The position numbers and the translations under genes were made by a program. A stretch of DNA of 64,000 nucleotides from positions 3,534,001 to 3,598,000 of the forward strand of contig JAYWIR010000005.1 of the NCBI GenBank assembly GCA_036172245.1, written 5' to 3'. Below the pieces are notes generated by a model. The model was not told the DNA's origin, made no database searches, and saw only the letters and a list, made by a program, of their open reading frames with translations. The first letter of the stretch is position 1. Each line of letters opens with the position of its first letter. Source of the DNA: Raillietiella orientalis. Its lineage: Eukaryota. This document shows, piece after piece, positions 1 through 58,940 of the stretch.

Positions 1-747
1 TCCATCAAAGGGACTCGAGGATTCCCCTTGCCTCAAAGGGCGATGAGCAGGAGGTCCTTGATCCTCTTTTTTATTTCTCTGGGGACGGGGCAAACAAAAA
101 GTAGGGGGCGAAGGATGAGAGCCGCAAAAGCGTTCCATACTGCGGCCCGTTCCGGCAAGCGGAACTTCCCGTACAGGAAAAAGCGGATCGCCAAATCCAC
201 TTTTTGGAGACGGCCTAACCATGCTTCTGAAGAGGATAAGTCCCCCAGCGAAACGCCAAGGTACTTCAGATGCGTGCTCGTTGGGATCCCCAGGCGAATC
301 CAGTCTGGCCGTCCCACTCACGTCGCTCCAACTGCCGCCATCGACGATTTTGCCCTGTTGACCCGTAGCCCTGTCCCACGGCTTAGCAGGTCGAAGAAAT
401 ATTCGACTGCTGTTGCCGGGGCGAACATTGGCAGCAGTAGCAGGAGATCGTCGGCATATGCGGACACGGCAGGCGTGCCATGGCACGAGCTTGGCAAGGC
501 AGCCAAAGTCATCCTGTATGCTCTAAGCAACAACTCGAAATAGGTGCTAAAGTGCAGGGGACTGATGCTATCGCCCTGCCGAATCCCGCGGGGCACCGGC
601 ACGCCGTACACGTTCTGCGCTCTGAAAGAGATGTTTGTTAACGCGGCTCGCCAGCAGGAGAGCAGGTACGCCGTTAATGTAAGAGTGAAGCCCATGTAAT
701 GCAGAAGCTCTAGGAGGAGCTCCTGGTCCACACAGTTGAACGCCTTG
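1..747 (-). mobile_element. Non-LTR retrotransposon RT fragment (family N), host of element A1
   Basis: Minus-strand KAFNCVDQELLLELL...GIRQGDSISP...YADDLLL...KYLGV with a stop at ~318; it ends at the A1 5' junction. Confidence 0.9.
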
Positions 748-760
748 TGCGCTCCAGGGT

Positions 761-769
761 GGACGTGTT
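761..769 (+). promoter_or_regulatory. Conserved 5' GGACGTG(T/C)T motif, putative internal promoter element (representative copy)
   Basis: Lies within ~15 nt of all ten intact 5' ends (families A, B, D, F, G, H). Confidence 0.6.
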
Positions 770-843
770 TTCTCGGTGCTCCTCGTGCCAGGAAGTCTCC
801 CCCAGTGCAGGCGTCGTGTGGTTCGGTGGTCGATCAGGCAGCG

Positions 844-3963: not shown

Positions 3964-3978
3964 ACGCCAAGTTGATAG
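3964..3978. repeat. 15-bp target-site duplication of B1 (ACGCCAAGTTGATAG; partner 11810-11824)
   Basis: Perfect direct repeat flanking B1. Confidence 0.95.
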
Positions 3979-4184
3979 TTGCCACCCGGACACGCCGGGG
4001 CGTTTATTTCAAATTCTCTTTGGTTCGTGGTACGAGGCCCTACTACGGCCAACTCAACTGGACCTGCCGGGTCGCCGGTACGCAGACCGGCGCGACTCTC
4101 CTCGGCAGCGGAAGGGGGTGGGGGAAAAAACAAAAAGAAAAATAAAACATAAAAACAAAAAGATTTGGGAGGGTTGGGGAGGGA

Positions 4185-7100
4185 TCACTGACCACTGGGA
4201 GGAGGGTCCATCCTTCGCAGGATGCCCTCGAGGTCCGTCCGTATAATCCCCAGGTGGGGCCATCTGGTCACAATCCGCAGGTAGCGGACTGCAAGTACGA
4301 CGGCATCCCTGTCGTGATTCAGTCTTCCGACGTTGCCTCAGCACGTCACAATCCCGCGTACGCACCGAAGTGGGCCAGGGCAGCGGCTGGACGCAGGGCA
4401 GCATGCACGAACAGAAGCCGAAAAACGTCTCTGGGCTGGCTGCCCTCCTGGATCCGTAGGGAAGCACGAAGACGTTCCCACAGGGGTCGGAGGGCAGCAC
4501 AATCAACAAGGAGATGGAGGAGAGTTTGCCGTTCCCCACACCTGATGCAAGTAGGATCTACTCGACCCCTGGTCCAGTGGTGGCGGCGTGCGTTGCAGGG
4601 TAGACCCCAATGCAACAACAGAAGCGCCGACTCCTGCCACTTCAGGGGGAGGATCCTAGTTTCAATTAATACCGGGGGCCACTTCAGGTCATCCGGCTGG
4701 ATGCCGAGTAGCTCGCTCCATCTCTGCAATCCTCTCGGCTGGACACTAGGGGTACTGGCGTCCGCCAGTTTACCCGTGGACCAGCCGCTGATCAACTTCT
4801 CCTTGCCTGCGATGCGGCAGGAGACTTGCCACCTAGGCTTGCGGCTGCTAAAGAGCGCCCTTCTCAACAAGGGCATCGCCGTAGCTAGGGGGGTTGTCTC
4901 TGCCCACGTGCTTCTCGCGGGACACTGGAGTATCTTCCGCAGAGTGCAGCGGGAATAGGCGCCGCGTCGCAGGCAGTTCCACATCTCTTCATTCTTCTCA
5001 TTGATCTTCGCCCACGTGCCAGCTGTCTCCTCCAGCCATGCGGAGGAGTTGGCGGGGCTGCATACCATCCAGCCGTTTTCCTTCGCCAGAGTTGCCATGC
5101 ATCCCAGGAGAAGTCCGCATCTCTTGATCTTCTTGCCACGGCAGAGAAGATAGGACGCGAGACCCTCCGTCCCGGATACACGGCTGGCAAGGAGTCGGGC
5201 CGGAACGCACGAAGAAGTGCTCCATAACTTCGCTGCGATGGCGAGGGTTCGCCATCGCAGCTGAATCTCTACTCACTCCATCGTCAAGAGGCCGAGACCG
5301 CCATCCCGACGTGGAGCACACAAGTCCTTCAACGGGACTCGGGCCTCCTTCTTCCCCAAAGGGCAATTCTCAGGCGGTCCTTTGTCCGTTTTTTCAACTC
5401 TCTGGGGACGGGGCAAACAAAAAGCAGGGGGCGGAGGATGGGAGCCGCGAACGCGTTTCATACCGCGGCCCGTTCCGGAAGGAGAAACTTGTCTTCCAGG
5501 AACGGGCCGATCGCCGTTTCCACTTTTTGGAGGCAGCCGGACCACGCTTCCGCAGGGGAGTAGTCCCCCAACGGCACACCAAGGTACTTTAAGCACCTCG
5601 CCGTGGGGATCCCCAAGCTGACCCAGTCCTGCTGCCCAGCCCACGCCGCACCGACTGGAACCACCGTCGACTTCGCCCTGTTCACCGTAAGTCCGGTCCC
5701 GCGGCTAAGCAGATCGAAGAAATCCCCGACCGCCTTCGCCGGGGTGGACATCGGCAACAGGAGCAGAAGATCGTCGGTATACGCTGCTACGGCGGGCGTG
5801 CGATGGCACGAGCTCGGCAAGGGGCCAAAGTCACCCTGTACGCTCTCAGCACCAACTCAAAGTAGGTGCTAAAGAGCAGAGGACTGAGGCTGTCGCCCTG
5901 CCGTATGCCCCGCCGTACTGGCACACCGTACGCCATTTGACCTCTGAAAGAGATATTGATCAGCGCGCTGCGCCAGCAAGAGCGCAGGTAGGTCAGTAGG
6001 GAGGGAGGGAAGCCCATGCGTCCCAGGAGCTCCAGCAGGAGATCCTGGTCCACGCAGTCAAACGCTTTATGCAGATCGACTGCGATCGCTAGGGCTCCCT
6101 TCCCCACCTGGGAGTCCTGTCCCTGCCCGGCTGACGCCCCCAAAGCGGGGCTCCCAATCCTTCTCTCTTCCTTTTCTTTCCTACTCTGCACATGAAACCA
6201 TGTGCTCGCGAAGAAGAGGTTGGCCTCCATACTTCGCCCGGGAACAGCGTAAGTCTGCTCCGGGCTAATTATGGAATTGGCCACCTGCCCCAGACGCGAA
6301 GCCCACAGTCCGGCGATCAGCTTGGCGTCCGTGTTCACAATTGTGATCGGACGCCAGTTGCTGAGTTTCCTGAGGTCTCCTCCTTTCGGAAGGAGCCTCA
6401 CTCTGGCTGACCGAAAGGAGGCGGTTACATCGCCTTCATCTCGGATCAGCCTTGTCAACTCAAGCACCAGGGGTGCCAGCTGTGCCGCGAAGCATTGAAA
6501 AAACTCCGCAGGCAGGCCGTCCTCCCCTGGTGCTTTCCGCCTCTTGAGCCTTTTGATACTGGCGAGAATTTCGCCGGTGGTGAAAGGCTCGTCGAGGTTT
6601 TCCTTCTCCTCCTCCCCTATTGCCGGGGCACCGTTCGGAAGCAAGAGCCGAGAGGCATCTTGGTCCGGGGGCGCCCTGGCGTAAAGGGAGGAATAAAAAC
6701 GCCGCACGAGGTGCCGTATTCTAGCCGGAGCCTAGTGCTTCCGGCCCTGGTCGTCCAGCAAGCTGGCCGATCCGGATTGCCAGGCTTGACGTTCGGCCCC
6801 GGCTCGGTACTCTGCCAGGCGACGGACATTGGGGGTCCTCGCGTAACCACGGGCATACAAGTACGCTCGTTCGTTACGGATGCCCTCCTCAAATCCCCGG
6901 GGCAGGAGGTGCAAGGGGAACTCCTCGCAAAACTCGCGGACCGAGGCCTTAAAAAGGTCCCAATCATTGAGATTGCGGAGGGTGACGCCTCTCAGGAATT
7001 CGCGAAGGTGTTCTTTCGCACCTGAGAGTCGCGTCCAGTCCCCAGGCAGACGCCACGCCCTGGATGGGGGGCCCTTGTCGCGCGGGCACACCTCGAATAT

Positions 7101-9700
7101 CAACCGGAAATGGTCAGACAGCTCCGACGCAACTTTCCCCCGTTTGCCGACCCGTGAATACAGATCGACATCCAGAAAGACGTGGTCGATGCTGCTGACC
7201 ATTTCCGAAAGATCCCCTAACAAGTTGCGCGTGCGCATGGCGGCGCACAACTCGTTAGCCGTCCGTTCCTGTGCGTGTGGCTCAGCTGACAGTAGGCGGA
7301 GATTAAAGTCTCCCGCTATCAGGTGAGCCACGCGCACGTTCGCTTCCGCCAGCCAGTCGCGCTTCAGGGTTTCCAGGAACGCCTTACGTTCCTGGTACCT
7401 GGTAGGACCGCTCGGAGCGTACACATTTGTTACGACGAGGTCGATCGTGTCGGACCACCTGAGAATCAGCTGGCCGACACGACCGGCTTCGTCAAAGCGC
7501 ACGCCCTTCACGGCTGCGTCGACTGCCGGCGTCATAAAAAACGCGACGCCGCAGGTGTATCGGGTGCCGCATTGCCACATCAGGCATCAGGCAGGGCGAC
7601 AGCTTAAGCCCCTTGCTCTTCAGCATCTTCTTTGAGTTGGTGCTGAGGGCAAACAGGCTGACGCTGGCCAACCTGCCGAGCTCTTGTCCAGGAACGCCGT
7701 CCGTGGCGGCCTATGCTGACGACCTGCTTCTCCTCTTACCCATGACCACCCCGGCATCCAGTCTCGAGGATTTCTTCGAGCTGATTCGCCGGGGAGCGGG
7801 CATGAGCGTAAACCGGAGCAAGAGCGTGGTCGTACCTATTGGTGCGGCGTGGGAGGGGCAGTCCGACTGGATCCGCCTGGGGATCCCGACCGCTTCCTCC
7901 GTGCAATATCTGGGCGTTCCGCTGGGGAACATCAGCCCAATGGAAGTGTGGTCGGACTGCCTTCGGAAGGCTTCGAATGCCCTGAGCCCGTTCCACCATG
8001 GCAGGTTCGTCCTGCCGGAGCGCGCCACGATATGGAAAACCTTCGTTGCCCCTCTCTTGCGCCCCCTGCTTTTTGTTTGCCCTCCCCCCTACTCGGCCAA
8101 GCTCCAGGCGCACAGCCTGTTGAGGAACGCTCTGTGGGGACCTGCGAGGTCCAGGATCCGCCTCAAAGACTTGGCGGCTCCGCGTCGGGATGCTGGCTTA
8201 GGCATCCTGACGCTGGAGAGAATCGAGCTGCAGGTGCAGCTTCGGATGTTGGCCCTGTGCGCCAACCTTTGGTCCACTCCGTGGTGCGCTCCCGCGCGCC
8301 TGCTTCTGCAGCGCTGCACAGGCAGCGATGGACTTCTGTCGCTGCGGCCGCACACGGAGCGCGCCACGAGAAGCTTCGGTTTCCCCTTGAAACCGCTGTA
8401 TCGGCTCCTGGAAGCCCAGGGATGGATCTCCTGCCGCCCAACGAACTTTAAAGCCTGGCGGCAGGAACCGTTGCATGGCTGGGCAAAGCACCAGGATGTT
8501 TCCCTCCTGGAACTCCGTTGCGCTCACCTCTCCCCGTACTGCACGGTGGATGAGGTGTGCAACAGCCAGGAGAAGTGGACCCGCCTGGCCGTCACCCCCC
8601 TCGAAGACGCACTGTCAGCCCTCAGGGCAAGAGATGACAGTTGCGAACCGGCGAGATGGGAGGTCGCCTGCACCATCGCAGGAACAACGCGACCTATTGG
8701 CGGCTGGAAGACTTGCGAGCTGGCGGACGCCGCCACGCCTCGCCACGTTCCGAAGGGACTCCTTCGGTGGAGCGAACACTTGAGTGTGCCCCTTGAAGAA
8801 CTTGTGGTTCCTCCCTCGTGTCTGAACACTTCTGTGTTCCCCCTTTCGTGGAAGCAGGACGTGATTATGCTGGTGCATTGGGGTTTTCACTCCAACCAGC
8901 GCACGGACCTTGTTTCCGGGGGAGTCGTCTCCCCAAACTGTAAGCGGTGCGGGGAAGTGGAAACGCTCCCGCACCTGCTCCTGGACTGCGGTGCCCTTCT
9001 AGGACTCTGGCGGAGGCTGGCCTCAGCTCTCCTGCACCAGGGGGACACCGCGAGGGATTTGATGCTCCGCTTCTTCACGCCAGGCGGCCTGTCATTGGGT
9101 GCTGTTGTTGCAACCGTGTGTTGCACCCGCGCCATCGACAAGGCCCACCGAGAGTTGGAGAAGCTGGCCATCCTTCGTCAGCCCACCGGATTAGCCAGCG
9201 CAAACATGTCGTCGGCTGCCCAGTGGGCCCATCTGCCACAGGGCGTGAGGAGAGAGATCGCCGGCATCCATCGCCGGTTCTGAAAGGAAGGAACGGCTGA
9301 ACCAAAGACCCCTGTCCCCTGCCCTCCATATCTTTATTTTTATTTTTTCTATACGGTGTATTTGTGGTCCCCTCCCTCCCGTTCCGGACTTTCGGCATAC
9401 CGACCTGCGTGTCGGGGATCCCACCCCCTTCGTCTCTTGTTTTCCCCTTTGTCCGGGAACCCTGTTCCCGGATAGTTTATAATAAACGCCCCGGCGCACC
9501 CGGGTGACAATCAACCGTCCCCCTGCGATCCTTTCGATCTCCTGGGCGTTCTCCGCGGTGATCACGTGGATCTCCTGCAGGAGTGCCAGGTCGGAGTCAC
9601 GCAGGGTGGCGGCCGTGTCCCGTCTGTTGCCGTCGTCGCGCAGCCCGTTCACGTTCCAACAGGCCACGCGTAATCGACGGCGACAGGCGAGCCCAGGTGT
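4185..9700 (-). pseudogene. B1 ORF2 (APE + RT + Cys/His finger), interrupted by C1 and frameshifted
   Basis: CWNVNG...LQEIH...GGRL|MWQCG...GDFN...SDH; KAPGEDG, WRPITIVNTDAK, DLHKAFD, QGDSLSP, YTDD; CIRCGE. Confidence 0.9.
7583..9510 (+). mobile_element. 5'-truncated element C1 (RT 3' half, open to 9283), antisense inside the B1 endonuclease
   Basis: Starts at GIRQGDSL; YADD; CKRCGEVETLPH; terminus AATAAACGCCCCGGCGCACCCGGGTGACAA; B1 sequence joins across it with only 3-4 bp duplicated. Confidence 0.92.
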
Positions 9701-11721
9701 TACTCCTGGGAAAGTGGCAATGGGGCTCCCGCCACCTGGTCGGGCGGGACGGATGGAGGAACGGGATCACCGCGCACCGGTTCTCCCTCCTCCATGGGGG
9801 CCGATTCCTCGGCGGACCGCAACGGTTGAAGGAAGCGGGTTCCACTCACCTGCTCCCCCTCTTCCATGGGGGCCGATTCGTCGGCTGCGTTGGACGGCAG
9901 GTGGGAGCGGTTGTCAGCTGTCTGCTCTCCCTCCTCCATGGCTATCTCCTGGACAGGTTCCACCGATGGGAGGGGGCGGCAATCACTCACCTTATCCCCC
10001 TCCTCCATGGGGGTCTCCAGTTGCTCGGTAGCGGAGGGTGGGAAAATCCCTCCCTCCGTTCCCACGCTGCCGGCTTCCCCCTCGGATGCCGGTGCGTCCC
10101 CCTCTTTCTTTGTCGGGATGCGCCTCTTGGGATTCTTGGACTTCCGTCCAGTCTTCTTCGGATGCGCCTCCGCGGAGGAGGACGCACTTCCAGCATCCGG
10201 TTCGTGGTCACCTGTCCGAGGTGCCTTGCTCGCGGCCGGCCTTCGCAAGGCCTTTCGCGCGCCGTTCTCACGCTCCGCGAGTTCGGCCGCGAGCTCTTCC
10301 GCCGCCTGCTGGAAGGCGGCGTCCTCGATTGCGGCGATCGCGTCGCTCGGCTCCCCCTCTGTTTGCACAGAGGGTTCGCCTTTTTCGATCGCGGCTTCGG
10401 CGTCAACGAGGCGGGAGATATCTCCCCCGGTGGAGGTCTCGGGGATCTCCACTCGCTCCAAAGCGACCGAACATTCGCGGAGCAACGCGCGGCGTTGTCT
10501 CGTATTTAAAGAAGATGTCGCGGGTTCCGCTGTCGGTTCTTCGGTTTTCTTTAATTTTTTACTTTTAGGCTTCGCCTTATGCCAGCCCTCGCTCTCTCCA
10601 GCGTCGTCGGGAGTACCCTCGACCGGCGCTTGCTGCACGGGTTCGGGCTCTGGCTGTGGGTTCCGCCTCTCGGGTGCCTCCTTAGGCTTGTCCGATCGCC
10701 CCGCGCGTTTCCCTTTGGCTTTTTTCAAAGCAGGGGGAGCCGGGGTTTCGCGTTTAGTACACACCCTCCGCAGGTGGCCCTTTTCGCCGCAGTGGAAGCA
10801 CTGGATGTGGGGGCATCGTTTTTTCAGGTGCCCTGTTGCATCACAGTGCCCACAGTACTTGGGCTTGCCCACGTACCAGACGTCGACGACCTCGTTGCCG
10901 ACGTTGAGTTTGTAGGGCAGCCCACCGTTTTCGTGGACCGTCACACGCGCTGCAGCCATGCCACTGAACAGTCTTCCGTATGTTTGGAAGACGTTGGGCT
11001 TGGTCCAGAGCGCGTGCACCGTACCATGTTTTTGTAACTCTTCCTGCACGCCAGCTTTGGTCATGCGCAGAGTTACACCCGTAAGGTGGGCAACAATGGA
11101 GCGGTCCTCCGTTACAGGGAAGACCTTTCGGCCTTCCAGAGTGATGGGAGTGTTCAGCAGGCGTTGAGCCAGACTTGCATTTTTGCACGTCAGCTCCACC
11201 CGCTGGCCCCCACTCATCACGGAGAGACCTTCCAGGTCTTCCTCTTTAACATCCAATCGCTGTAACTCCCTTTCAAAGTTACGAGCGGTGTTCCCAACAA
11301 ACAGATTGCCTACCTTGTATATCAAGGACGGCTTGTATCCCTGCTCCAGGTAGGCTTTCTGCAAGGCGAATGCTGCAGGAGATGGGGCTGCAGCCACTGA
11401 ACTCCAGGTCTTCGGCGATGCCGAAGACGCATTCGAGGGTGCAGGTGCCCCCTTTTTCAAGGAGGCGGTTGCGCCCTTTTCCAGGGTTGCGGTTGTCCCC
11501 TTTTTCAAGGGGGCGGTTGCACCCTGTTCCAGAGGGGCTTTTGTTCCCTTTTTCAAGGGGGTCTTTGCCCTCGCTTCCGAGGCGGCGGTTGCCCCCTTTT
11601 TCAGGGGTGCGGCGGCCATCGCCTCCGTGGGGGCGGTTGCCCCCACCTCCGTGGGTTGGGGAGAGGAGCGAGCCTCTCCTTCTCCTATATCCATCGCGGT
11701 CTCCTCAGGCATTTCTGCCAT
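9700..11721 (-). CDS. B1 ORF1, intact gag-like protein (~673 aa) with two CCHC knuckles
   Basis: Open frame MAEMPEET...LSQE*; CGHCDATGHLKKRC and CFHCGEKGHLRRVC. Confidence 0.9.
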   Translation of the reverse strand: MAEMPEETAMDIGEGEARSSPQPTEVGATAPTEAMAAAPLKKGATAASEARAKTPLKKGTKAPLEQGATAPLKKGTTATLEKGATASLKKGAPAPSNASSASPKTWSSVAAAPSPAAFALQKAYLEQGYKPSLIYKVGNLFVGNTARNFERELQRLDVKEEDLEGLSVMSGGQRVELTCKNASLAQRLLNTPITLEGRKVFPVTEDRSIVAHLTGVTLRMTKAGVQEELQKHGTVHALWTKPNVFQTYGRLFSGMAAARVTVHENGGLPYKLNVGNEVVDVWYVGKPKYCGHCDATGHLKKRCPHIQCFHCGEKGHLRRVCTKRETPAPPALKKAKGKRAGRSDKPKEAPERRNPQPEPEPVQQAPVEGTPDDAGESEGWHKAKPKSKKLKKTEEPTAEPATSSLNTRQRRALLRECSVALERVEIPETSTGGDISRLVDAEAAIEKGEPSVQTEGEPSDAIAAIEDAAFQQAAEELAAELAERENGARKALRRPAASKAPRTGDHEPDAGSASSSAEAHPKKTGRKSKNPKRRIPTKKEGDAPASEGEAGSVGTEGGIFPPSATEQLETPMEEGDKVSDCRPLPSVEPVQEIAMEEGEQTADNRSHLPSNAADESAPMEEGEQVSGTRFLQPLRSAEESAPMEEGEPVRGDPVPPSVPPDQVAGAPLPLSQE
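11445..11645 (-). repeat. 33-bp coding tandem repeat in B1 ORF1 (PLKKGATAx, ~5-6 units)
   Basis: Repeated GCCCCTTTTTTCAAGGG-like units. Confidence 0.85.
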
Positions 11722-14174
11722 TGGACACCGCAGATGCTCCACACACAAACACAAAAGAAACCAAACGCTTTAAACCAGGCGCGGAGGAGCGCTACAAAAA
11801 CACGTCCGCACGCCAAGTTGATAGCCAAGATGTGAGCAGAGCGTCTGGGACGGGTTGCCAACATCTTCATCCGCCCGAAACAGACATATGCTGTTCCCGG
11901 GCGAAGCATGGAGACGAACCTGTTGTACGCTTCCACCTGGCTAGAGCTCCAACATGAAAGGAGCTTGCTGCGCAGCCGGAATTCTGGTGCGTGCGCCGGC
12001 AAGGGGTTGGACGGTCGGGTGGGGGAGGGAGCTTTTGTGGTCGCAATCGACTTGCGAAAAGCATTCGATTGCGTCGACCAGAATTTCCTTCTGGAGCTTC
12101 TGGAACGCTTGGGCTTCCCGACCTCATTAGTAACCTATCTGCGCTCCTGCTGGCGCGACGCGCTCATGCATGTTACTTTCAGCGGGCAGACCGTGCACAA
12201 CGTGCCGGTGCGGCGTGGGAACCGGCAGGGAGACAGCCTGAGCCCCTTGCTCTTCAGTACCTACTTTGAGTTGGTACTGAGAGCGTATAGGGGAATTATG
12301 GCGCACCTGCCGCACGACTGTGCCGGTACGCCGGCCGTTTCAGCATACGCGGACGACCTTCTGCTGCTGCTCCCTATGTCCACCTTGGCTGCGGCGGTCG
12401 AGTAGTTCATTGACCTGCTGCATTGGGGAACCGGACTTACGGTGAACAGGGCGAAGCCGTCCGTGATGCCAGTTGGTACGGCGTGGGCAGGGCAGCTGGA
12501 CTGGGTCCGTTTGGGGATCCCCACGGTAAGGTACCTCAAGTACCTTGATGTACCGTTGGGGGACTACTCCCCTGCGGAAGCGTGGTCCGGCTGCCTTCAA
12601 AAAGTAGAGACGGCGATCGGCCCGTTCCGAGGCGGCAGGTTTTTCCTGCCTGAACGGGCCACGGTTTGGAACACTTTCGCGGCTTCTCTTCTCCGCTTCC
12701 TGCTTTTTACTTGCCTTCCCACAGAGAGAATTAAAAAGCGGACAAAGGACGACCTCCGTATCGGCCTTTGGGGCAACGGGAGGGCCCGATTCCGCTTAAA
12801 GGACTTGTGCGCTCCTCGTCGGGATTGTGGTCTGTGCCTCCTGACGCTGGAGCGGCTGGAGCTTCAGCTCCAGTTCCGCTTGTCGGCACTCGTTCCAGAG
12901 TTGTGGTGCACCTGTTGGTGCGTCCCTGCACGTCTCCTCCTTCAGCAAACCACCGGCAACACGGGACTGACGTCGTTTCTTTCACTCCGTCGCCGCGTCA
13001 ACCGAAGCGGACTCCAGCTACGGAGGGAGGCTGCGCTGTATCGCAAAAACCCAGGATTGCTCACCAGTCGGCCTTTGAACGGTGGTGCCTGGTGGCAGAA
13101 AACCGTTCGAAAGTGGAAACAGTTCGGCATGCAACGCTCCCAACAGGAACGAAGGTTCCTGTTTGGTAGTTACAGAAGTTGCACGCTCCGCGTGATCCTT
13201 AAGGATCCAAAGAAGAGAGCGTGGGCAGGAAGAACCCCCCTTGCTGCTGCGCTGCTCTCCCTGAGGAAGATCTGGACAGCGACGTTGCGGCGAAGTGGGA
13301 GGTTTGAGTTACAATCTCTGGAAAGGAGAAGAAGATAGGAAAGTGGAAGACGGGCCAGTTAACTGACGCTGGGTCCCCGAGTACGCCTCCCAATGGACTT
13401 CTGCGCTGGGGCGCGCTGCTCGATGTTCCTATTGAAGATCTGAAGTGGCCCCCGGTGCTCATTAAAACTTCCGCCCTTATCTTAAAATGGCAGGAGTCGG
13501 CTCTCCTGTTGCAGCACTGAAGACTCCCTTGCAACATTCGCCGACACCACTGGACCTGGGGAGCGGTGGACCCCAATTGCGTCAGGTGTGGGGAACGGGA
13601 GTCCCACCCCTAGTTTCTAGTGGATTGTGTTGTCCTTCGGTCCTTTTGGTTTCGCTTTGCCGCCGCCATCGGAATCCCCTGCGGCAACCCCAGGGACGCA
13701 CTGAAATCCCTCTTCGTTGCCGACGCCCTTCGGCCAGCGGCCTCGTTAGCAGCTTTGTGCTGCCTACGCGGGATCTTCACCGCTTGGAGCAAGGCTACGG
13801 GCGGACCACACGAACAGGGTGCCACTCAGCCTGCTTCCCAGTTCCTCAGGAGGGCGTCGCGATGGCCCCACCCTGATCCAAGCATGCAGCAAGAGCTTGC
13901 CGTCATCCTGCAAAGGATGGAACGGCCCCACCAGCAACTGTGATACCTTCCCTTACCATCCCAACTTTTCTTTTCTTTTTTGTTTTGTTTTTTGTTTTTT
14001 CCCCCTTTCCCCTGCTGCCGTGGTGGAGCGCACCGGTCTGCGAATCGGTGACCCGGCAGGCTCTGTGTTAGTTCGTGCGTGGCTGGAGCAATGGTCCAGA
14101 AACTCCACGTCTTTGTAAATGTTTTTTTTACGATAGACGCTTCGACGAAATCCGGGTAAAAATCAAACGCCTAG

Positions 14175-17100
14175 CGTGCTCCAGGGTGGACGCGTTTTCT
14201 CGGTGCTCCTCGTGCCAGGAAGTCTCCCCCAGTGCAAGCGTAGTGTGGTTCGGTGGTCGATCAGGCAGCGATGCCTGACGCGACCACCAGGGATGGCCAG
14301 GGGGCAGCGGAAACGCCGCCCCCAGAGGCGATGGAGAGCCAGGGGGCGGCGGCAACGTCACCCTTAGAAGCGATGGAGGTGGGGGCATCCGCCTTCACGG
14401 AATCGGTCCCCGCTGCAGCGCGGGCGTGGAGCGCCGTTGTGTCGGCGCCATCGCCTGCAGCCGCGGCGGAATTGTCGGCCTATGTGGAGGAGGGGTACAA
14501 CCCCTCATTGTTCTACAAGGTAGGCAATTTATATTCTTTAGAGAGCGCGCGCGCCTTCTCGAAGGACATGCGCGCTCTCGATGTGAAAGAGCAGGAGCTC
14601 AGCGCTATGACCATCCGCAGCGGGGTCTGTACGTTGAGGTCATCTGCAAACAAGCAGAGCTGGCCCAACGACTGCTTAAAACCCCCGTGGTGATGGGGAC
14701 GCGCAGGCTCCTCCCTACTACGGCGGACCGCAGCATGGTGGTCCACCTGTTAAGTGTTACCGTGCGGATGCGCAAGGAACAGGTTCGCGCCGGGTTGGAA
14801 GAATACGGAACGGTCCATGAGCACTGGACAACAGTTAGTCCTTTCGAGGACTACACGAGGCTGCAACACGGCCTCACTGCTGCGCGCGTGACCGTTCGGG
14901 AGGGCTGCACTCTTCCCCACAAACTGGTGGTCGAAGGCGAAACCGTCGACCTGTGGTATGTGGGGAAGCCGAAAGACTGTTTCTTCTGCAATACGTCGGG
15001 CTACCTCAAAAAGAGATGTCCTAATGTGCAGTGCCAAGTATGCGGAACCATGGGTCACACGAGGGAGGTGTGCCGTAAAGCAGCAGTGCGGCTGGTTCCC
15101 AAGAGAAACCTTAAAAACCGTGCCGGCTTCTGCAGAAAAGGCTGACTGCGAAAGCTGCCGCGAAGGCTGTGCCACCCGCGCCCAAGGCCCAGGCCGCACC
15201 CGAGACCCCGGCGAACAACGCCGAAAAAGTCAAGGGAACAAGCCAGGAGCCTGGGTGGCAGGTGGCTACTGCCAAAAAATGAAAGAAGAGGAGGATGGAG
15301 AAAAACCTCGCGTACCGCCAGAAATACAGCAGGCAAGCGAGCAAATTAAACAATGCAGCGTTGTTGTCGAGCGTATTCCCGACCGCTGCGTAAAAGAACT
15401 CGCCGCTACCGACGACAATCCCTCTGTTGACTCAGTCAACAGCGAGGGGAGCGAGCCGGCGGCGGCGTCCGTCATCGACACCAGCATCGATGACGTAGCC
15501 TTCGCGCGAGCCGCGGAGGAGCTGGCAGCCTCGTTGCAGCCAGAACCCTCCAAGGCTGGCAAAAAGGCCGTAAGGCGTCCGGACTCCCCTCAGGAGTCCC
15601 TCAATTCCGACCCCGAGGTGGAGGCCGGAAGCGCAGCCTCAGTTTCCACGGCACCGCGCAAGAAGGCTGGACGTAAGTCCACAAAGCCAAGGAAGCTCGT
15701 CTCCCCCGTCGAAGGGGAAGAGATGGCTTCCGCAAGCGAGGGTGCCATGAGCGTGGGAAACTCTCGGGACCCGTCGCCCGAGAAACTCCCACGCGCAGAC
15801 ACGGAGGGGATGGAGGGGGTGGAGGCCGAACAGGTGCCTCAGGTGCCTGAGAAGGCCGAAACCCCCATGGACATCCCGCCTGCCTCGCAAGAGGAGGGCT
15901 CCCCCACACCTTAATCTTCCCAGCAGTAATGCCGGGAATCTCCTCCCGCCGTCGTCTGCGCATCGCCGTTTGGAACGTGAACGGCATGACAGACGCCGGC
16001 AGGAGACGAGACATGGCCGCCCTTCTGGAGTCCAAGGACCTTACGCTGCTGCAGGAGATCCACGTGATCTCAGCAAAACAAGCGCAAGAGATTTCTTACC
16101 CGGTCACGCCGGGGCGTTTCTTCCATATAACGTAACCAAAAAATGCAATTATACAAAATAAACCAGTTGTGTACCAAACTCCCAACTGACGACTGAACAA
16201 GAATGAAGAGAATATTGCTGGCACGCAGGCCAAAGTAGCAGTTTTGTGAACGGTGTGGGGGTGGCGGGGAACACAAAGAAACCAAATTAAAATAAAAACA
16301 ATGAATAAGGGCGACGGGGTAAAGGTCTTTGGGATCGCTCTGGAAGAAACGGGGATAAAAGCATGGGCACGGGAAATTTTACCGAGCGAACGGGGACGGG
16401 GTATGGGTGGGCGAGAGGTCGCAGGGGTCACCGGATTGTGCCGGTCTCAAAGGTGTGTAAACCGGCGATGTATGCCGGTGATGTCCTCATTCACCTTGTC
16501 ACAAACATGAGACCACCTTGAAGCCTTCTCCATGAATTGAGCTGCAAGCAGGTGAGCCTATGTTCGCTGCGCTGACAACTCCTGGGCGTAGCGGGCCTTC
16601 ACGATGGCGCGAACGCAACACATGGTTGCGGCAATCGCGCCAACCGAAAGTCCATTTCTGCTGAAGAAGCGTTGCAGCACATCAATGGCAGTGCCTTCTT
16701 GTGGCATGATGGCCTAAGTGAGCTTTCGCCACAGTTCCCGGAGGTCACCGCAGTCCAGCAAAAGGTGCGGAAAAGACTCCATCTCTCCGCACCTTAAACA
16801 GTTTGGCAAAGCGGCTGCCCCGGAAACGATTCTTCGCTGCCTATTACAGTGTAATGTACGATGTAAAAAGAGCAGCACATCTTGTTTCCACTTAAGGGGG
16901 AACACGGAGCTGTCCAAACTAACGGGGGGAACCACTATGTCTCCAAGGGGCACACTTAAATGTTCGCTTCACCGAAGCAGGCCCTTCGCCCGATTCCGAG
17001 GTAAGGCGGCTTGCACCAGCTCCTTTGTCGTCCAGTTGCCGAGGAGCTTACTGACTCCCGGTATTTTGCAGGAGAACTCCCATTCCGCCGGTAGGAAACC

Positions 17101-19675
17101 GTCGTTGCTTGCCCTGAGGGCAGACAGCGCTGCGGCGAGTGGTGTGGCGGCCAGACGATCCGACAACTTCTTGTCCTGCATGACTTCGTCCATTTGATGA
17201 CTGAGGAGAAGTCGCAGTCGTCGAAGATCTTCCGGGCGCGTTCCTTCGGAAGCTTCCCACGATGGAAAAGATTCCTGCCGCCATAGATTAATGTTGATGG
17301 GGCGGCAGGAGATCCAGCTTTGGGCTTCCAGCAGTGAGGACAGCTGCCTCAGCGGGAAGCCAAACCCTATTCTGGTGTGCCGAATGTGGGGTAGCAACGA
17401 AATCAGTCCCTCGCTTTCCGTGCAGCGCCTCAGTATAAGGCGTGCGGGTAAGCACCACGGCGTACACCACAGCTTGGCACAGAGCCGCAGCATGCGAAAC
17501 TGCACCTGCAGTTCGATGCTGTTTAAGTCGAGGATGCCCAAACCTGCATCCTGACGCGGCGCCACCAAGTCTTGAAGTCTAACACGGGATCTTGCAGCGC
17601 CCCACAACGCTTTGCGTAGAAGGCGCTGCGCCCAGACTTTGACTTCCTGGGGGGGTGGACAAACAAAAAACAGGGGGCGGAGGAGGGGGGCAACGAAGGT
17701 GTTCCAGATGCAGGCCCGTTCCGGCAAGACGAACTCGCCTCCTGAAAACGGGCCAAGTACACGCTCTGCCTTCCGAAGGCAGTCCGACCACGCTTCTGAG
17801 ATGCAGAAGTCGCCCAACGGCACTGCAAGGTACCTGAGGTACCTGCCCGTGGGGATCCCCAGGTCGATCCAGTCGGACTGCCCCTCCCACGTCGCACCCA
17901 CCGGAACAACCATACACTTACTCCTGTTAACGCTCACGCCCGCACCGCGACGAATCAACTCAAAGAAGTCTTCAAGCGATGTCGCCGGGATAGACATGGG
18001 TAACAGGAGAAGCAGGTCGTCGGCATAGGCTGCCACGGCCGGCATACCTAAACAGGAGCTCGGCAGGCTGGCTAGCGTCAGCCTGTATGCCTCCAGCACC
18101 AATTCAAAATAGATGCTGAAGAGCAGCGTGCTTAAGCTATCACCCTGCCTAATTCCTCGTCGTTCCGGTACGCCGTACACGCGACAGCCACTGAAAACAA
18201 TATATGTAATCGCGTGGCGCCAGCAGGAGGGCAAGTACGCCAACAGGGATGCCGGAAGACCCAGACATTCCAAAAGCGCAAGAAGAAGCTTTTGGTTCAC
18301 GCAATCGAAAGCTTTGTGCAAATCGACTGCAACCGCCAAGGCTCTTGGTGTCTCTTCTTTGCGTCCCGCGCCTCCGTCGGTGAGAGATCGAAGGCGTCGA
18401 TTCCGCACGACGATCCACCGCCACACGATGCTGCTATTGCAGCTATGTGCGGATGAACAAGAAATTCGCGTCCATGGACCGCCCAGGAATAGCGTACGTC
18501 TGCTTCAAGCTTACCAAGGATTCCTTGATTCTACCCATCCGCGCCACCCAAAGTTTCGATAACAACTTGACGTCCGAATTCACTAATGTGATCGAACGCC
18601 AGTTGTTCAGTTGGCGGAAATCTCCGATTTTCGGCAGTAGACGCAACTGCGCTTATCGAAACGAGGCGGGGACATCGCCCGAGTCTCCCATCAGCGACGA
18701 GATTTAAAGCATCAGGGGGATGAGCTCCACCGCAAAACACTGGAAGAATTGCGCGGGGAGCCCATCTTCGCCTGGCGCTTTTCGTCTATTGAGCCCCGAG
18801 ATGGAAGAGGAAATTTCCTCTGCCGTGAAGGGCTCATCAAGACGCGCGCGTTCCTCCTCGTGCACAACAGGTGCATCAATCGGCAACAACAACCGAAAGA
18901 GGCTGCGTTCCGTCGGTGCCTCTGCATACAGAGAAGAGTAATATCGCCTGACTATCCGTCGCACGTCGGCTGCAAATGCAGCTATGTGCGGATGAAGGAA
19001 CGCAGGAGATCGAACGGATCTCCGGAGGGCGGCTATCTTACAGGTGTGGGAGAGCGAAAAGTTGCGGTGTCGCCTACCTGCTTCGGCCAGCCGTCGAGGC
19101 CACGGCTCGGGGCGTGCGGTTCGACGATCACGTTCGTGCCGGCCAGCTGACTCTCAGTTGGTCCGACTCGATCGTTCTGATCGTCACGAACGTGTACGCA
19201 CCGAGCGGCGAAAACCTGAAGACCAGGAGAGCGAGGAAAGAGTTTTTCCTTGCCCTCCGGCGAGACTGGCTGACCAAAGCAGGCGTGCGGAATGCCCATC
19301 TGGTAGCAGGCGATTTCAACGTTCGCCTGAAACCAGATGGGCAGAATCCCGAGCGTGACCTGGTAAACGAGGTGCGCATGGCAGTGCACACCTGTAATCT
19401 GTTGGCCAGTGCACCGAGGATGGAAGACAGCATTGACCACGTGTTTCTTGACGAGAATCTGTGCCCTCGCGTGGGCAGGCGCGGCAAGTTACCGTGCGAT
19501 CTGTCCGACCATCGCCCGCTAGTCCTCGAGATCCATCCGCGCGACAGGGGCCCCCCCTCGTCAGCGTGCCGTCTCCCAGGGGACTGGAGCGGTGGCTGGA
19601 GCAATGGTCCAGCCACCGCACGTCTTTGTAAATGTTTATTATACAATAAACGCCCCGGCGGAATCCGGGTGAAAA
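14175..19675 (+). mobile_element. Element A2, head-to-tail with A1; interrupted by E; lacks the whole RT (deleted from the EN end to the 3'UTR)
   Basis: 5' GGACGCG at 14188; disrupted ORF1 14271-15929; EN at 15929-16092 and 19011-19587; terminus CCGGGTGAAAA; downstream flank TCGAACACCTTG at 19676-19687. Confidence 0.88.
16093..19000 (-). mobile_element. 5'-truncated element E (RT + C-terminal region), antisense inside the A2 endonuclease
   Basis: KAPGEDG, DLHKAFD, QGDSLS, YADD, CLRCGE, stop at 16447-16449; terminus CCGGGTAAGAA; TSD CGCAAGAGAT (16083-16092) / CGCAGGAGAT (19001-19010). Confidence 0.9.
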
Positions 19676-22600
19676 TCGAACACCTTGAGGAGATCGACCG
19701 CGACCGCCAAGTCACCTGGCGTTCCCTCCTGCCGTCGGCGCCTGTTTTTCTTGCTCGCGGCAGTGACTTTCGCAGCAGCCTGGCTTTGCTGCGCCACAAC
19801 TTGCTGCAGCTGCATCCATGTACGCGCGAAAAGGATGTTCGCCTCCATGGATCGTCCCAGAACCGCGTAGGTTTGTTCCGGGCTCACCACAGATTCCGCG
19901 ATACTTCCTAACCGCGCGACCCACAGCTTGGAAAACAACTTGACGTCCGAGTTCACCAAGGTGATCGGACGCCAGTTGTTAAGTTGACGCAAGTCTCCGC
20001 CTTTCGGCAGGAGACGCACCTTCGCTGAGCGGAAGGAATCAGGGACATTCCCGGATTCACTCATCAGCGTCGCGAGTTTCTGCATCAAGGGAATGAGCTC
20101 CACTTCAAAGCACTGATAAAACTCTGCAGGGAGCCCATCCTCGCCTGGCGCCTTTCGTCTCTTCAGCCCAGCGATGGCGGACGAAAATTCATCCGCCGTG
20201 AAGTGCTCATTGAGACGTTCGCGTTCCTCCTCGCCGACAACACGATCATCCTCAGACAGGAGTATCTCAGAAAGAATATCCTCCGTCGGGGATTCCGGTA
20301 GAGCGAGGAGTAGTAGCGTCTCACAATGCGGCGTACTTCGGCTGGAGCCCTACATTCCTGGCCCTTGTCGTCAAACTGGCATGCTGCTCCGGACTGCCAG
20401 ACTTGGCGCTCGGCCCTCGCCTTGTACTCTGCGAGACGCCCGACATCCGCGCGTCTCGAAAACGTGCGGGCCTGCAGAAAGTCTCTACTGTTGGCCACGC
20501 CCTCTCCGAAACCGCGTGGAAGCCGCTGCAAGGGGAATTGGCAGCAGAACTCGCGGACAGATCTTTTGAGATCGTCCCAGTCCGCAAGTTCTTGAATGGC
20601 AAAGCCTCGGAGGTATCCACCTAGATGCTCCGCAGACTCCGGTTGGCTAGGTTAATCCGCCTGCATCCTCCAGTTTTGCAACCGAGGCCCCCTGCCAGGC
20701 GGAAGGATCTCAAACTCCAACCTCTGGTGGTTAGAAAGCCTAGTCAACAATCTTCCTCTCCTACCCACACGCGAATGCAGGTTTTTATCGAGGAAAACGT
20801 GATCGATCGATCTTTCCATTCCAGGTTCGCTGGCCATCAAGTTAGCGGCGTGCACGGACGCGCCCATCTCGATGGGCAGCGCGCGCTCCCTCGGGCGGCT
20901 CCAATCGTCGGAGAGCAGGCGGACGTTGAAGTCCCCAGCGACGAGCTGCGCCACTTGGAAGCCGGAGTTGTTGAGCCAGTGGCTCTGCACCTCACCAAAG
21001 AAAGCTACTCTTTCTTCGAGGTAGCAAGAGTCACTCGGCGCGTAGACGTTCGTAACGACGAGATCGATGGACTCGGACCACTTGATGACAAGCTGTCCTA
21101 TCCGTTCGTCGTCATCGAAACGAACACTACGCACCGCTTCCGCCATTTTTCCTCTTACGAGGAACGCGACGCCGCACGTGAGTGCGCCGCCGCACCGCCA
21201 ATGTAGCGTTCCGCCTGCGCGCTCCTCGATTTCGGCTGCCTGCTCGTCGGAGATTACGTGAATCTCCTGCAGGAGCGCGAGGTCGCAGGGACGCAGGGCG
21301 TTGGCTACTAATCGCCTCTTTTCGTCGTTCTGTAGTCCGTTTGCGTTCCAACACGTTACGGACAGACGACGAGAAGACGCGATTCCCCGCATTACTGCTG
21401 GGAAGGTGGCGGCTTTTTGCTCGCTTTATCCGGCAAGCAGACGGCGAGCAGCACGACTGGCTGGAAGGAACGGTCGCCACCGTCCTCCGTCGTGCTGCAT
21501 GCATGTAATGCCTCCACGCCAGGCTTAACCCCGTCGGGTTTCGTGGAGACTTCGCGTTGCTTCGCGGCGAGCGTTGCCTGGCTACCTACTTTTAATCGGC
21601 GCGCACACGCTTTTGAACAAGTTGTCCTCGTCTCGGTGATCGGAACGGCATCTATTTCGGAGTCCGACCGGCGCATGTTCGATCGGGTTTCGGCCTTCCA
21701 CGAAGTAGTGACAGGTTCTGCTGGATTGACAGCTGTCCTGTTTTCGTTTTTTGTCACCAGAGCATCGCTTTTGGTGACGGCTGCTTTCCCGGCGCGCGCG
21801 TTTTCAGCGTGCTCACGCGCAGTTGCACGAGGGACCTTTGCTGAAGTCTTCTTTACTTCATTACGGTTCCTCACTTCGCCTGGCGCCGTAAATGGAGATC
21901 GTGCTCCATTGCCATCTTTGAAGCCATCCGCGTCTTTAAACGGGAGCAGTTTCGATGGCTCCGACACGCTCGTCATGGACGCTGCCTTCGGAAGGGCTTT
22001 TATTCCCTTCGTTGGCATGGCATCCGTGCCAGTCGAGAGCTTGCTCTTCGACTGCGACGGCGTGAGATTTTTCTCCGCTTTCGCGGTGTTGGATCGCGAC
22101 GCGGATTTTTTTTTGCCGACTTTGGAAGTCGACACGGCACAACCCTTCTTACCCGATTTGGGCTTCTCAGCCACTGCAGGAGGTGAAGGAATGGATCCGA
22201 CGGTACTGGAAGTGTCCTTACCGCCGTTGTCCATTGGCGTCCCCGCCAGTTGCTCGAACTCCGAAGGAGCCGGGCGTGCTTGGGAAGGACAGCTATTGCG
22301 CCTAGGGGGACCTACCATTGCCTCGCATTCTCCGCACCCTTTCTTTTGCGACTTCCCTGCCGCGAGTGGGGGCGCGCAGGGCTTCGCGTGCTAGTTTTCC
22401 TGCTGCTTTGGGGCGACATTCCGCTTCGCGTTTTTACGGAATTTCTGCCGTGGGGTCTCCAGGTTTTATCGCATATTTTTTCTTTTTATCCGCGCTTTGT
22501 TTTTTAAGATGGAGCTCCGCGGCTACCTTTTTTCGCAAAAGATCCGGGCAATATTTCAATTGGTGCCCGGATAGTCTGCAATAACGGCATTTTCCAGAGG

Positions 22601-30534: not shown

Positions 30535-33500
30535 TCAGGGGGGAATTCCAGCTGGATGGTCCCGGGCGTTCTCCTGGATCCTCTTCAGGATGAATCGGTA
30601 CATCCAGGCGTGGATCTTCCCGCAGTTCCTGATGCCGATTTCCCTCTTCAAGAGCCCTTGTAGGATCTCCATCGGTGGTGCGGCTCTCCTGGCTTTCCTC
30701 ATTTTCCACCACCGCACAAGTATGGCGGTGATGAAGAGGGCTATGGTCGTCCTCACCATGGGATTGTAACAGGGAACATTACCATCCCCATGAAACATCC
30801 CGGCGAGGATCTCCATAACGGACTCGTTGGTAAGTCCTATGCTCCTTTTCAGGATCAGCCATTCATGCAGCAGTGTGGGACACGTCAAGACGTGAAGTCT
30901 CGTGTCGTCGTCTCCACATGCTGCGCAGTCTCGATCTTCCCGTCTTCCTGTAAAGTACTGCAATCAGGACCCACTCTGGATTTCTCCGTGATAAAACATC
31001 AGGAGGTCATCCTGGGTGTCCGGCGGAAGGTCACTCCTCCAGAGCGTCGTGCCGATCGCTAACAGGTTGAACCGTTCACTCCCGTAGCGTTCGGTGGCCT
31101 CCTGGAGGGCACTGGTGTCACGGTCGTTTCCTTGGATAAGCCTTCGGAGGTTTGTTCTGGTTACCCTCGACCATGCGAAGTCGTTGTGGTTGAACCACAC
31201 TTCGCGGGTCCTGTGGGTAAACCTTTCTAACATCATCTCTGTATACCGAAGTATACGAGTTTGATGTAGGTAGCCTCCTCGCCTCCACTCCTGGATTTGC
31301 AGTAGGGTAACTCTGGACCGCTGGTAGAATCAGCTTTTCGTGTCCGGCGGGACAGGAAGCATCCAAGGGATCACCAGGATGGACTCGTCCTGCCAGAGTT
31401 CCCTGCTTCGCGGCACGATCTTGATTTGGTGCTTCCGCACCAGCCGTTGCTTCCTCCTCCAGGTCGGGTCGATTGTTATCCATTCCCCTACTTCGCCTAG
31501 CAGCGCAGTCATCAGGCCTTTCGAGTTGTTAAGCAACAACGCGTAGGCCCTGTGCGCCGCATACGGCCAGTCATCCCAGTGAGTGGCAATGTCCAGGATG
31601 TGTCGCGTATCCATGATTTCCATGGAATGTGCAAGCGACTTCATCCCGGAACCGCCTTCTTCCCTGGGACGACACAGGGATTTCAGTCTTACTCTTGGGC
31701 GATAGTGGCCCCAGAGTGTTTTTCTTTGCAGCTTGTCGAACTCCCTAGTAGTGTCCTTGTTCATCCTCGCGAAGGCCGCCCCGAAGAGCACTTTCGGAAG
31801 GAGTACTCCGTTTCATATGTTGGCCTTTCGCTTCATCCCAAGGTCGGTTCGGGTGTACTTGGCTGCTTCCTTGGCCGTTTTCCCCAGGATTTCCTTCCAC
31901 AGCAGCTTCGACGCAGAGTCGTCGCCGATGTAGACTCCCAGGTACTTGGCCGTGTCCACCGTACGGAATCCACTACCCGTTAGAGCGGAGAGGTTCAGGA
32001 TTCCGACGGGCAAAAGCTGGCTCTTCTGGGAATTGATTTTTAAGCCCAAGCCCTGTTCCATCAGGTCCACCACATCCAGAAACGCACGCTGATTTTTCTC
32101 TCCTTTGATGAAGAAGAGTAGATCATCGGCGTATGCCAGATGGGTAAGACGCTGGCCATCGATGGTAATCCTGCTCAGTCGTCCGCTCTTCTCGATAAAG
32201 GACAACAACGCCTCCATATAGATGACGAACAGCATCGGACTTAGCGAGTCGCCCTGTCGGACTCCTCGTTTCATCCTGATTGCTGCCGTCTCCTGGTCGT
32301 TGATCTTGATCCGGCAGTACTGGTTCTGGAGTACCGCCCTCACGAAGTTGCTGAAGTGTTCCGGAAGCCCTAGCTTCTCCAGAACCTTCAGCAGCATCCC
32401 GTGGTCGATGGAGTCGAAAGCCTTCTCCATGTCAGTGAACACCAGCACCAGGTTCTCGCCGACGTATCGACTGAGTCCAACAGTGGCCTGGGCACACTTG
32501 ACATTGTCCGACATGTGTCGTCCTGGGACTGCACATGTCTGGACCGGAAAGATCAGCCTCCACATGACCTTGCCTAAGCGGTTGGACCAGATCTTCGCCA
32601 ACCACTTGGCATCGGAGTTTAGGATCGAGATTGGCCTCCATTGGGCGATCTGGGTAGAGTCGCCTCCTTTCGGCAGCAATCTCATCCGACTCTCGTAGAA
32701 GGACTGAGGTAGTCTGCCTTCTTTCCGGATGCAGAGGGTCAACTGGTGGAACAAGCGCAGGTAGGCGTGCAGGTACCGCTGATAGTGCGTGATGGGTACA
32801 CTGTCAGGGCCCGCTACCACGTCCTTGCGAAGTTGCACAAACGCAGTCTTCACCTCTTCTTCGGAGAACTCCTCCTCCAGTCTGTTCCGCTGGAGGTCGT
32901 AGGTCCTCTTCTCGAGATAGCTCAGGAAGGCCTGTTGACTAGAGCGACACAGATGTTGTCGCCTGAAGTGTTTCGTGTAATGCCTGTGAAAGGCATCCAC
33001 GATGTCCTCAGACGACTGTCGCTTTTGGCCGTCGTACTGGATGCAGAAGATATCTGTTGCCAGATTTCTCTTCTCCAGCATGCCGACTTCCCCTTTTATG
33101 TTATTGAGGACATACCGACTCTCGTACTGATCGAAGTACTTTGAGAGGGAGCGATCTTGGATGTTCAGCTCCCGGTACGCCTCTTGCCTCAAGCGCCTAT
33201 CCCCGAACTGCATGTTCGCAAACAGGTGTATCCTGTGTTTCAGGCTGTCCCAGTCGGCGACTCTTCGGATTGTTGTTGCCCTCAGAATTGCCTCCAGGAC
33301 AGCCTGAAGTCCGGGATGGGTTTCGAACCAGGCGGGCATGCTGATGAGCGCCGCCCTGGTGCCTTGCCTTCGCCGAGGATTCTCCGTTCTTAGGGAAAAC
33401 CGCACCAGGGGTGATCGGACGCCGTAGTCATAGTGTCGCGAAACCCCTGGATGCGGTTCCCAAGTTCGGTGCTGTGCAGGACGTGATCGATCGGCTTGTG

Positions 33501-34052: not shown

Positions 34053-34065
34053 AAAAGGGGAAGAC

Positions 34066-35826: not shown

Positions 35827-35895
35827 CCTGGCAGCCGCTTCTTTGAGGCCCTCTTCGCGGAAGGCGAGGAGCAGGAGCAGCGTGGTTTGAATAAT

Positions 35896-37030: not shown

Positions 37031-37039
37031 CTCCCCTTT

Positions 37040-41242: not shown

Positions 41243-41465
41243 GCGTGCAAACGTGTTGTCTTTGCGCTTTTGCCGCACCAGTTTGCGAAGCTTTTCTTTA
41301 GTGTTCTTTTGAGTGGTGAATCGCCGTTATTTCATGGCAGGACTGCCTGAGGACGCCACGGTGGATATTGGAGGAGAAGAGGATTGTTGCGCTCCTTAAT
41401 ACACGCAGGTAGGGGAAACTGCACCAAGAAGGAGAGAACAAACGCTCCCTTTTCCAAGGACACTA
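41243..41465 (+). mobile_element. Degenerate 5' end and ORF1 start of a B-like element (P)
   Basis: TGCAAACGTGTT (decayed 5' motif); MAGLPEDATVDIG resembles B1 MAEMPEETAMDIG. Confidence 0.55.
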
Positions 41466-58919: not shown

Positions 58920-58940
58920 CCAGCTAAGGTTCATCAGCTC

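Follow-up and report, generated by a model that had tools for sequence, protein, structure and literature searches.

The window analysed here (the whole 64-kb stretch of DNA) opens with part of a reverse transcriptase (RT) gene that breaks off at its conserved K-A-F-D codons, where a second retrotransposon begins in the opposite orientation. This raises the question of whether that second element, here called family A, uses the RT motif of other LINEs as a fixed integration site. The first-pass annotation had proposed that family A targets this motif in antisense in at least four host families, that the insertions cannot be copies of one event, that they disrupt the host RT, and that empty matching sites lie elsewhere in the window. 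Each of these points was borne out: six of six A termini lie on one 12-base word antisense to host K-A-F-D codons, A splits the host RT within motif A, the flanks belong to four lineages, and three perfect sites stand empty (Table 1).

A nest of L1-like non-LTR retrotransposons fills nearly the whole window, which has a G+C content of ~59%. Pfam returned many pieces of Exo_endo_phos (APE) and RVT_1, which lie on both strands, together with CCHC zinc knuckles in frames resembling ORF1 and a single weak zf-RVT; an Rfam screen of the window gave no matches. At least six LINE families are present, A, X, Q, R, Y and Z among them, and their nesting was resolved up to three levels (A containing X containing Y, and A containing R containing Q). 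The sole intact ORF2 in the window, of 909 aa, belongs to Q (47174-49900); a protein search with it returned 45 matches, all APE and RT proteins of 20-30% identity, the closest at 24-30%.

Table 1. Positions in the window of the family A copies, their hosts, target words and nested elements
Feature	Position	Strand	Description
Host N, RT fragment	1-747	-	K-A-F-N codons onward, ~residues 581-827 of the ORF2 at 47174-49900; 56.7% aa identity (tblastn); Pfam RVT_1 at 321-833(-); ends at window edge
Target 12-mer TTGAACGCCTTG	736-747	+	5' junction of A1; antisense of host K-A-F-(N) codons
A1, 5' segment	748-3978	+	5' end, ORF1 (CCHC, one in-frame stop), APE, ORF2 to RT motif 1 (VNADAKL)
X1, full-length sister LINE	3979-11809	-	Antisense in A1 RT motif 1; 15-bp TSD
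X1 TSD copies, ACGCCAAGTTGATAG	3964-3978 and 11810-11824		Perfect
Y1, 5'-truncated LINE	7584-9510	+	Nested in X1
A1, 3' segment	11825-14162	+	RT, C-terminal region, 3' UTR ending ...AATCCGGGTAAAAA
A1 own K-A-F-D site	12057-12068		3 mismatches to target; empty
Single 12-mer TCAAACGCCTAG	14163-14174	+	Between A1 3' end and A2 5' end; head-to-tail tandem
A2	14175-19675	+	Pieces 14175-16092, 19001-19587 and last 88 bp 19588-19675; internal deletion of ~2.3 kb at CTGG microhomology
Z1, 5'-truncated LINE	16093-19000	-	Nested in A2
Host D1, Q-type ORF2	19676-21425	-	Residues 1-584; end falls exactly on the K-V-F-D codons
12-mer TCGAACACCTTG	19676-19687		A2 3' junction
Host fragment left of A3	41462-41536	-	W/A-like RT, KAFDSVNKNLVLELPERLGFPSS
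Perfect 12-mer TCGAACGCCTTG	41525-41536		Left of A3
A3, 5' segment	41537-42902	+	Followed by nested R
R, full length	42903-45205 and 51114-54470		Nested in A3; ~18-bp TSD
Q	45206-51113		Nested in R
A3, middle segment	54471-56314	+	ORF1 second half, APE with intact motifs, to RT motif 1
X2, 5'-truncated	56315-58939	-	Nested at RT motif-1 site identical to that of X1
A, 3' segment	58940-61752	+	RT (RVT_1), weak zf-RVT, 3' UTR ending ...AATCCGGGTGAAAA
A own K-A-F-D site in 3' segment	59647-59658		3 mismatches; empty
Host fragment right of A	61753-62120	-	X-like RT, residues ~462-584 (...AIAVDLHKAFD)
12-mer TCGAACGCCTTA	61753-61764		A 3' junction
Empty perfect site in Q ORF2	48913-48924	-	In the 909-aa open frame; paralogous counterpart of occupied D1 site
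Empty perfect site in X2	58396-58407	+	
Empty perfect site in Y2	62574-62585	-	

Family A is an L1-like non-LTR retrotransposon of ~5.6 kb (about 5.57 kb as reconstructed). Its ORF1 is of the CCHC type, its ORF2 combines an APE endonuclease and an RT with a zinc-finger-like region at the C-terminus, and its 3' stem-loop precedes a closing GAAAA. The APE lies N-terminal to the RT and ORF1 is separate, which is not the single-ORF layout of elements with a restriction-like endonuclease. The element is without terminal repeats, and its defined 3' end is joined to the target, with the 12-mer present at both junction classes. Pfam recognised Exo_endo_phos at 54775-55770 (E = 2.5e-14) and RVT_1 at 59504-60505 (E = 5.4e-16), and the WNVNG, LQE, NVYAP, GDFN, DH and SDH motifs, which we take to be the usual APE catalytic motifs, are intact. 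Every A copy in the window contains stop codons. The copies are 87-95% identical to one another; segments compared between A1 and A3 gave 90.9%, 94.7% and 90.8%, the last over 2362 bp of the A1 3' segment against 59402-61762. When the nested elements are excised at their own target-site duplications (TSDs), a colinear A results. It was noted that a 473-bp direct repeat of A flanks X2 (55840-56312 vs 58940-59412, 95.6% identity), which reflects either an unusually long duplication at the X2 insertion or a join of two A copies, and the A3 unit may thus be two joined copies. An A-like element, W, lies at 38580-41227 with 72.7% identity to A; its 3' flank, checked as a further A-type insertion, was degenerate and held no recognisable RT.

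The ends of the elements are as well defined as their coding regions. The three A 3' ends are identical (...CCGGGTGAAAA), and the 5' terminus is recognised by …CCAGGGTGGACGYGTTTTCTCGG. The last ~25-30 bases form a stem-loop of 7 pairs that is conserved across the sister families, without covariation; this 3' terminal motif, AAACGCCCCGGCG..CCGGGTG, with its predicted 7-bp stem-loop, closes elements that end at 61752, 19675, 3979(-), 56315(-), 51113, 54470, 9510 and 16093(-). After it comes a tail of 4 bases, NNAA in form, that differs between families (AAAA, GCAA, ATAA, TAAA, ACAA or AGAA); A has AAAA, and no poly(A) tail was found at the 3' ends of the LINE families of the window. At the opposite end, the motif GGACG(T/C)GTTTT occurs at or near the 5' end of full-length A, X, R and Q copies (761, 14188, 41550, 42903, 45213, 11807(-), 23387(-) and 25685(-)), preceded by 0-13 family-specific bases, and it may be a common initiator or internal promoter.

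We located the A 5' terminus as a 30-mer with up to 3 mismatches and found three matches in the window, at 748, 14175 and 41537; the 3' terminus (...CACGTCTTTGTAAATGTT...AATCCGGGTGAAAA) likewise gave three, ending at 14162, 19675 and 61752. The 12-mer TCGAACGCCTTG, with up to 2 mismatches, directly adjoins all three 5' ends and all three 3' ends, and the words at the six termini read TTGAACGCCTTG, TCAAACGCCTAG (common to the two tandem copies), TCGAACGCCTTG, TCGAACACCTTG and TCGAACGCCTTA. The word at 736-747 is one mismatch from the consensus given in the first-pass annotation. Its reverse complement, CAAGGCGTTCAA, encodes K-A-F-N in frame with the minus-strand RT fragment KAFNCVDQELLLELL..., and the word itself shows a CpG transition, TCG to TTG; TCGAAC has two CpG-transition products, TTGAAC and TCAAAC, and both are seen. 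With up to 1 mismatch the 12-mer occurs 10 times in the window, compared to 0.69 expected from shuffles, an excess that arises mostly because RT genes are abundant there. The informative signal is the placement of the A termini on the 12-mer, rather than that excess. The termini of X, Q, R, Y and Z adjoin other sequences, so the association is specific to A. Outside the window, a scan of genome contigs with a 29-mer of the A 5' end gave no matches, and all 10 loci found with a 20-mer of the 3' end in a metagenome scan were chance matches with unrelated upstream sequence.

The reading frame of the hosts ties both classes of junction to the same codons. On the 5' side of A the host resumes downstream of K-A-F-D (...KAF(D/N)CVDQ...), and on the 3' side it reaches through the motif (...VAVDL(H/L)K(A/V)FD, as ...VAVDLLKVFD and ...AIAVDLHKAFD). 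Because the whole 12-mer is in frame with host codons at both junction classes, a 12-bp target-site duplication is implied. At all junctions in the window A is oriented opposite to the host gene, and all A copies in the window, representing 3-4 insertions, reside in the target.

The lineages of the interrupted hosts were then compared. Host N is at most 76.5% identical at the nucleotide level to any other RT copy in the window, D1 is Q-type at 96%, and the fragment right of 61752 is X-like at 81.5%. The 75 bases left of 41525 match W at 58/75 positions, A at 53-54/75, and X, R, Q and N at 41-49/75. The RT flanks of A in the window thus represent four lineages (N, Q-type, W/A-like and X-like), and these are far more diverged than the A copies themselves, which means that the junctions are not one duplicated junction. 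The best control is the D1/Q paralogue pair, which offers the same site filled and empty. The two belong to an inverted duplication (42714-48924 vs 25874-19676, 94.5% over 6213 bp) that takes in the end of an A ORF1, then the 5' portion of R, then Q as far as K-A-F-D. Its alignment stops on the last base of the 12-mer, where the D1 copy passes into the A2 3' end and the Q copy continues uninterrupted. A public sequencing run held 26% of sampled words and gave 37 contigs over 13300-15200, only 2 of them at least 99% alike and most below 95%, with zero depth in two bins around the junction. Among the loose ends listed for these 37 contigs one was informative: in it the A 5' end continues into ...CTGGTCAACACAGTCG, and 30 of 30 bases of this flank are identical to the stretch that directly follows K-P-F-D in the R element of the window. 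On this single contig, R-type elements may constitute a fifth host lineage for A, a support that is thin but independent.

Taken with the arrangement of the flanks, these comparisons also bear on how the region was later remodelled. In none of the A units of the window do the two flanks derive from a single host: N and a Q-type element border the A1-A2 tandem, and W/A-like and X-like fragments border A3. Attempts to match the left flank of an A unit with its right flank were unsuccessful, as the lineages differ, and later rearrangement must be assumed. The window thus offers no intact example of a host divided into two halves by A, and a clean pre-insertion host is not rebuildable. The flanks could have been exchanged by ectopic recombination between 5.6-kb A copies or by the joining of several cut target sites.

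We consider it likely that A inserts by site-specific target-primed reverse transcription into the K-A-F-D word of RT genes, with a 12-bp TSD. Under this model, A would integrate sequence-specifically into 5'-CAAGGCGTTCGA-3', the K-A-F-D word of RT motif A in other LINE families, and its endonuclease would nick the host coding strand after ...GCGTTCGA. In its standard form, target-primed reverse transcription has its first nick at the 3' junction; that nick would accordingly lie in the host coding strand after ...AAGGCGTTCGA. The 3' OH released there would prime reverse transcription at the GAAAA tail of the A RNA, and the other strand would be cut 12 bases off, after ...CGCCTTG, leaving the 12-mer duplicated on both sides. 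As this duplication regenerates the word, a second copy could land beside the first and give the tandem at 14163-14174. That only one 12-mer separates A1 from A2 agrees with insertion into a regenerated target and also with recombination within the word. The exact nick positions would follow from the junctions, and the mismatched flanks would be due to later recombination.

RNA-DNA pairing has been proposed to guide site choice in some rDNA-specific elements, and the same could be asked of A: a read-through A RNA carrying the 12-mer would anneal to a nicked or broken word and prime reverse transcription there, with a nuclease of relaxed specificity. The word lies downstream of every A copy and would be carried by such an RNA; the tail is a fixed GAAAA and not a variable poly(A), as expected from precisely templated initiation; and sister families with a nearly identical 3' stem-loop (7 pairs) sit at other sites. 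The constant 12-bp stagger and constant orientation are nevertheless most simply set by a nuclease, and we regard homology guidance as the source of specificity as unlikely. Pairing is compatible with a specific endonuclease, and the two may act together or the one as a helper of the other. Since examples of specific APE-type nucleases exist in both the R1 and the Tx1 clade (PMC4640811), the most economical view is that the endonuclease of A sets its specificity.

Could the junctions instead descend from a single A-in-RT junction, spread by segmental duplication, ectopic recombination or gene conversion? The window is heavily rearranged, as seen in the 6.2-kb inverted duplication, the 473-bp repeat in A, the deletion inside A2 and the unlike left and right hosts, and this lends such a history some weight. 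Beyond the 12-mer, however, the flanks are 55-77% identical over 75 bases and at most 81.5% over 340-700 bases, compared to 87-95% for A; duplication would have had to break exactly at both A termini each time; and an independent sequencing run holds another host context. A single ancestral junction is thus highly improbable. An assembly artefact, in which chimeric joins in collapsed repeats mimic junctions, is hardly credible: the region is repeat-dense and the public-run contigs over it are short and mostly diverged, but at each level of the nest the elements prove colinear and bear TSDs of their own, and misassembly would not set six termini on one 12-mer in the RT frame.

If site-specific insertion by A is accepted, an intriguing question is what distinguishes the sites that it occupies from those that it leaves empty. 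We counted 15 RT K-A-F-D sites in the window. Of the sites with 0-1 mismatch, four are occupied (N, D1 and both A3 flanks) and four are empty (Q, X2, Y2 and S), whereas none of the seven with 2-4 mismatches is occupied (X1, Z1, P, R, W and both A-family RT genes). The contrast of 4/8 (0-1 mismatch) with 0/7 (at least 2) gave p = 0.051 (one-sided Fisher exact test), and several of the differences at the seven empty sites are synonymous. The own site of A reads AAA GCA TTC GAT, with 3 differences from the target, and its relative W has AAA GCA too. The first-pass annotation had argued that a near-invariant RT motif leaves the host little room for escape by mutation. This argument did not stand up well, as the target is a nucleotide word and not a peptide, and 7 of the 15 sites differ from it at 2-4 positions, all of them empty; the peptide is constrained while the word is free, and the argument is weakened accordingly. 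Escape or self-protection by codon choice is possible from the pattern of these sites, which is suggestive only and not significant. The mismatches at occupied sites may have arisen after insertion.

The sister families were characterized in the same manner. X lies antisense in RT motif 1 of A (the VNADAKL codons) twice, at an identical position (3979 and 56315), and the X1 and X2 insertions are likely, if not certain, to be independent. Q is inserted in sense in the GD/FN codons of R, R in sense in ORF1 of A, and both Y1 and Z1 in antisense, the former where the APE of X1 encodes GGRL and the latter where the APE of A2 encodes AQEI. For Q, R, Y and Z this amounts to one independent event each (n = 1), since the second copies of Q and R lie inside the inverted duplication. 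The two Y copies are 99.4% identical over 1268 bp (7582-8849 vs 62733-64000), and no stop interrupts the Y2 frame before the window ends. Of the families in the window Y is the youngest and is possibly still active; the 5' junction of Y2 lies at a host position unlike that of Y1.

Site specificity is seen for A and probably holds for X, and a site-specific guild of such families is possible. On a reading that we hold with less than even confidence, the nest would be a self-building LINE island, in which sister families divide LINE coding sequence into family-specific sites and inactivate their relatives, and in which A recodes its own site. A would take RT motif A (K-A-F-D), X would take RT motif 1 (N-A-D-A-K-L), and the others would take the APE (GD/FN, GGRL, AQEI) and ORF1, with a synonymous AAA GCA in place of AAG GCG serving as the shield of the A RT. 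If this guild were real, the repeated cutting of many identical sites would explain the unlike flanks and the rearrangements.

We compared family A with known mobile elements of similar habit, by features rather than by clade placement. Sequence-specific APE-type LINEs are known from the R1 clade (R1, TRAS, SART) and the Tx1 clade (Tx1L in the Tx1D DNA transposon, Keno in U2 snRNA genes). Like A, they combine an APE and an RT with one precise site, a fixed orientation, a short TSD and a multicopy target; unlike them, A targets, in antisense, the codons for the catalytic RT motif in other LINEs of its own broad kind. Transposons are already among the targets of sequence-specific APE-type LINEs (PMC4640811). 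The class is known, here within a Zepp-like nest. In the full texts searched, no LINE was described as targeting RT-motif codons.

The nest itself resembles the Zepp and ZeppL clusters of green algae, which in the available excerpts are L1-type LINEs in GC-rich clusters of nested copies and are described as targeting existing copies. Those excerpts give no nucleotide-level site and no RT-motif target, in contrast to the 12-mer of A. In a table of PMC3747384, the tails of Zepp and L1-1_CR are listed as (A)n, which differs from the GAAAA end of A. The excerpts also assign Chlamydomonas a single ZeppL family, compared to at least six LINE families in the window.

R2, Utopia and other elements with a restriction-like endonuclease share with A a life in conserved multicopy sequence. 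They target host rRNA and snRNA genes with that endonuclease, whereas A uses an APE and targets transposons. Tandem insertion at a regenerated site is reported for Utopia-1_NVit (PMC4640811). Celine, a centromeric LINE of poplar, is like A in landing mostly in other transposons, as 52 of its 58 full-length copies do; every Celine copy has a TSD of its own, which indicates that a region and no sequence is targeted, whereas A returns to a single 12-mer. Homing endonuclease genes, inteins and group II introns park in the active-site codons of conserved genes, where change is constrained by the product. Their mechanism of mobility is wholly unlike that of A, and synonymous variation at the A site is common in the window.

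The known targets of site-specific LINEs are rRNA, snRNA, tRNA and spliced-leader genes, telomeres, microsatellites and a DNA transposon. If our reading is correct, the catalytic-motif codons of the RT of other LINEs would form a new target class, representing direct transposon-on-transposon parasitism and a case for the study of competition and immunity between mobile elements. It would also supply a nucleotide-level mechanism for the growth of LINE-only nested islands, for which a centromeric role has been proposed in some green algae. The case would further indicate an APE-type nuclease that recognises a GC-rich word of 12 bases, of practical interest for targeted integration; for annotation, the 12-mer and the other TSDs allow nests to be dissected layer by layer.

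Several further features of the window were recorded. A distant L1-like family lies at 31495-35925 (-) with 27% aa identity to Q and long open frames (an ORF1 of 619 aa, an APE, and an RT of 590 aa); at K-A-F-D it differs from the A target at 2 positions, and the site is empty. The interval 36000-38500, which adjoins the degenerate 3' end of W, has a lower GC content (~51%) and neither LINE similarity nor a Pfam match, and it may be the nest edge or non-LINE DNA. A 1058-codon open frame at 41351-44524 (+) spans the host fragment, the A3 5' segment and nested R, and is probably a chance in-frame fusion and no gene. The differences between paired TSD copies (736/14163, 42885/54471 and 16082/19001) are nearly all transitions, several of them at CpG, which suggests cytosine methylation and deamination in the repeat island.
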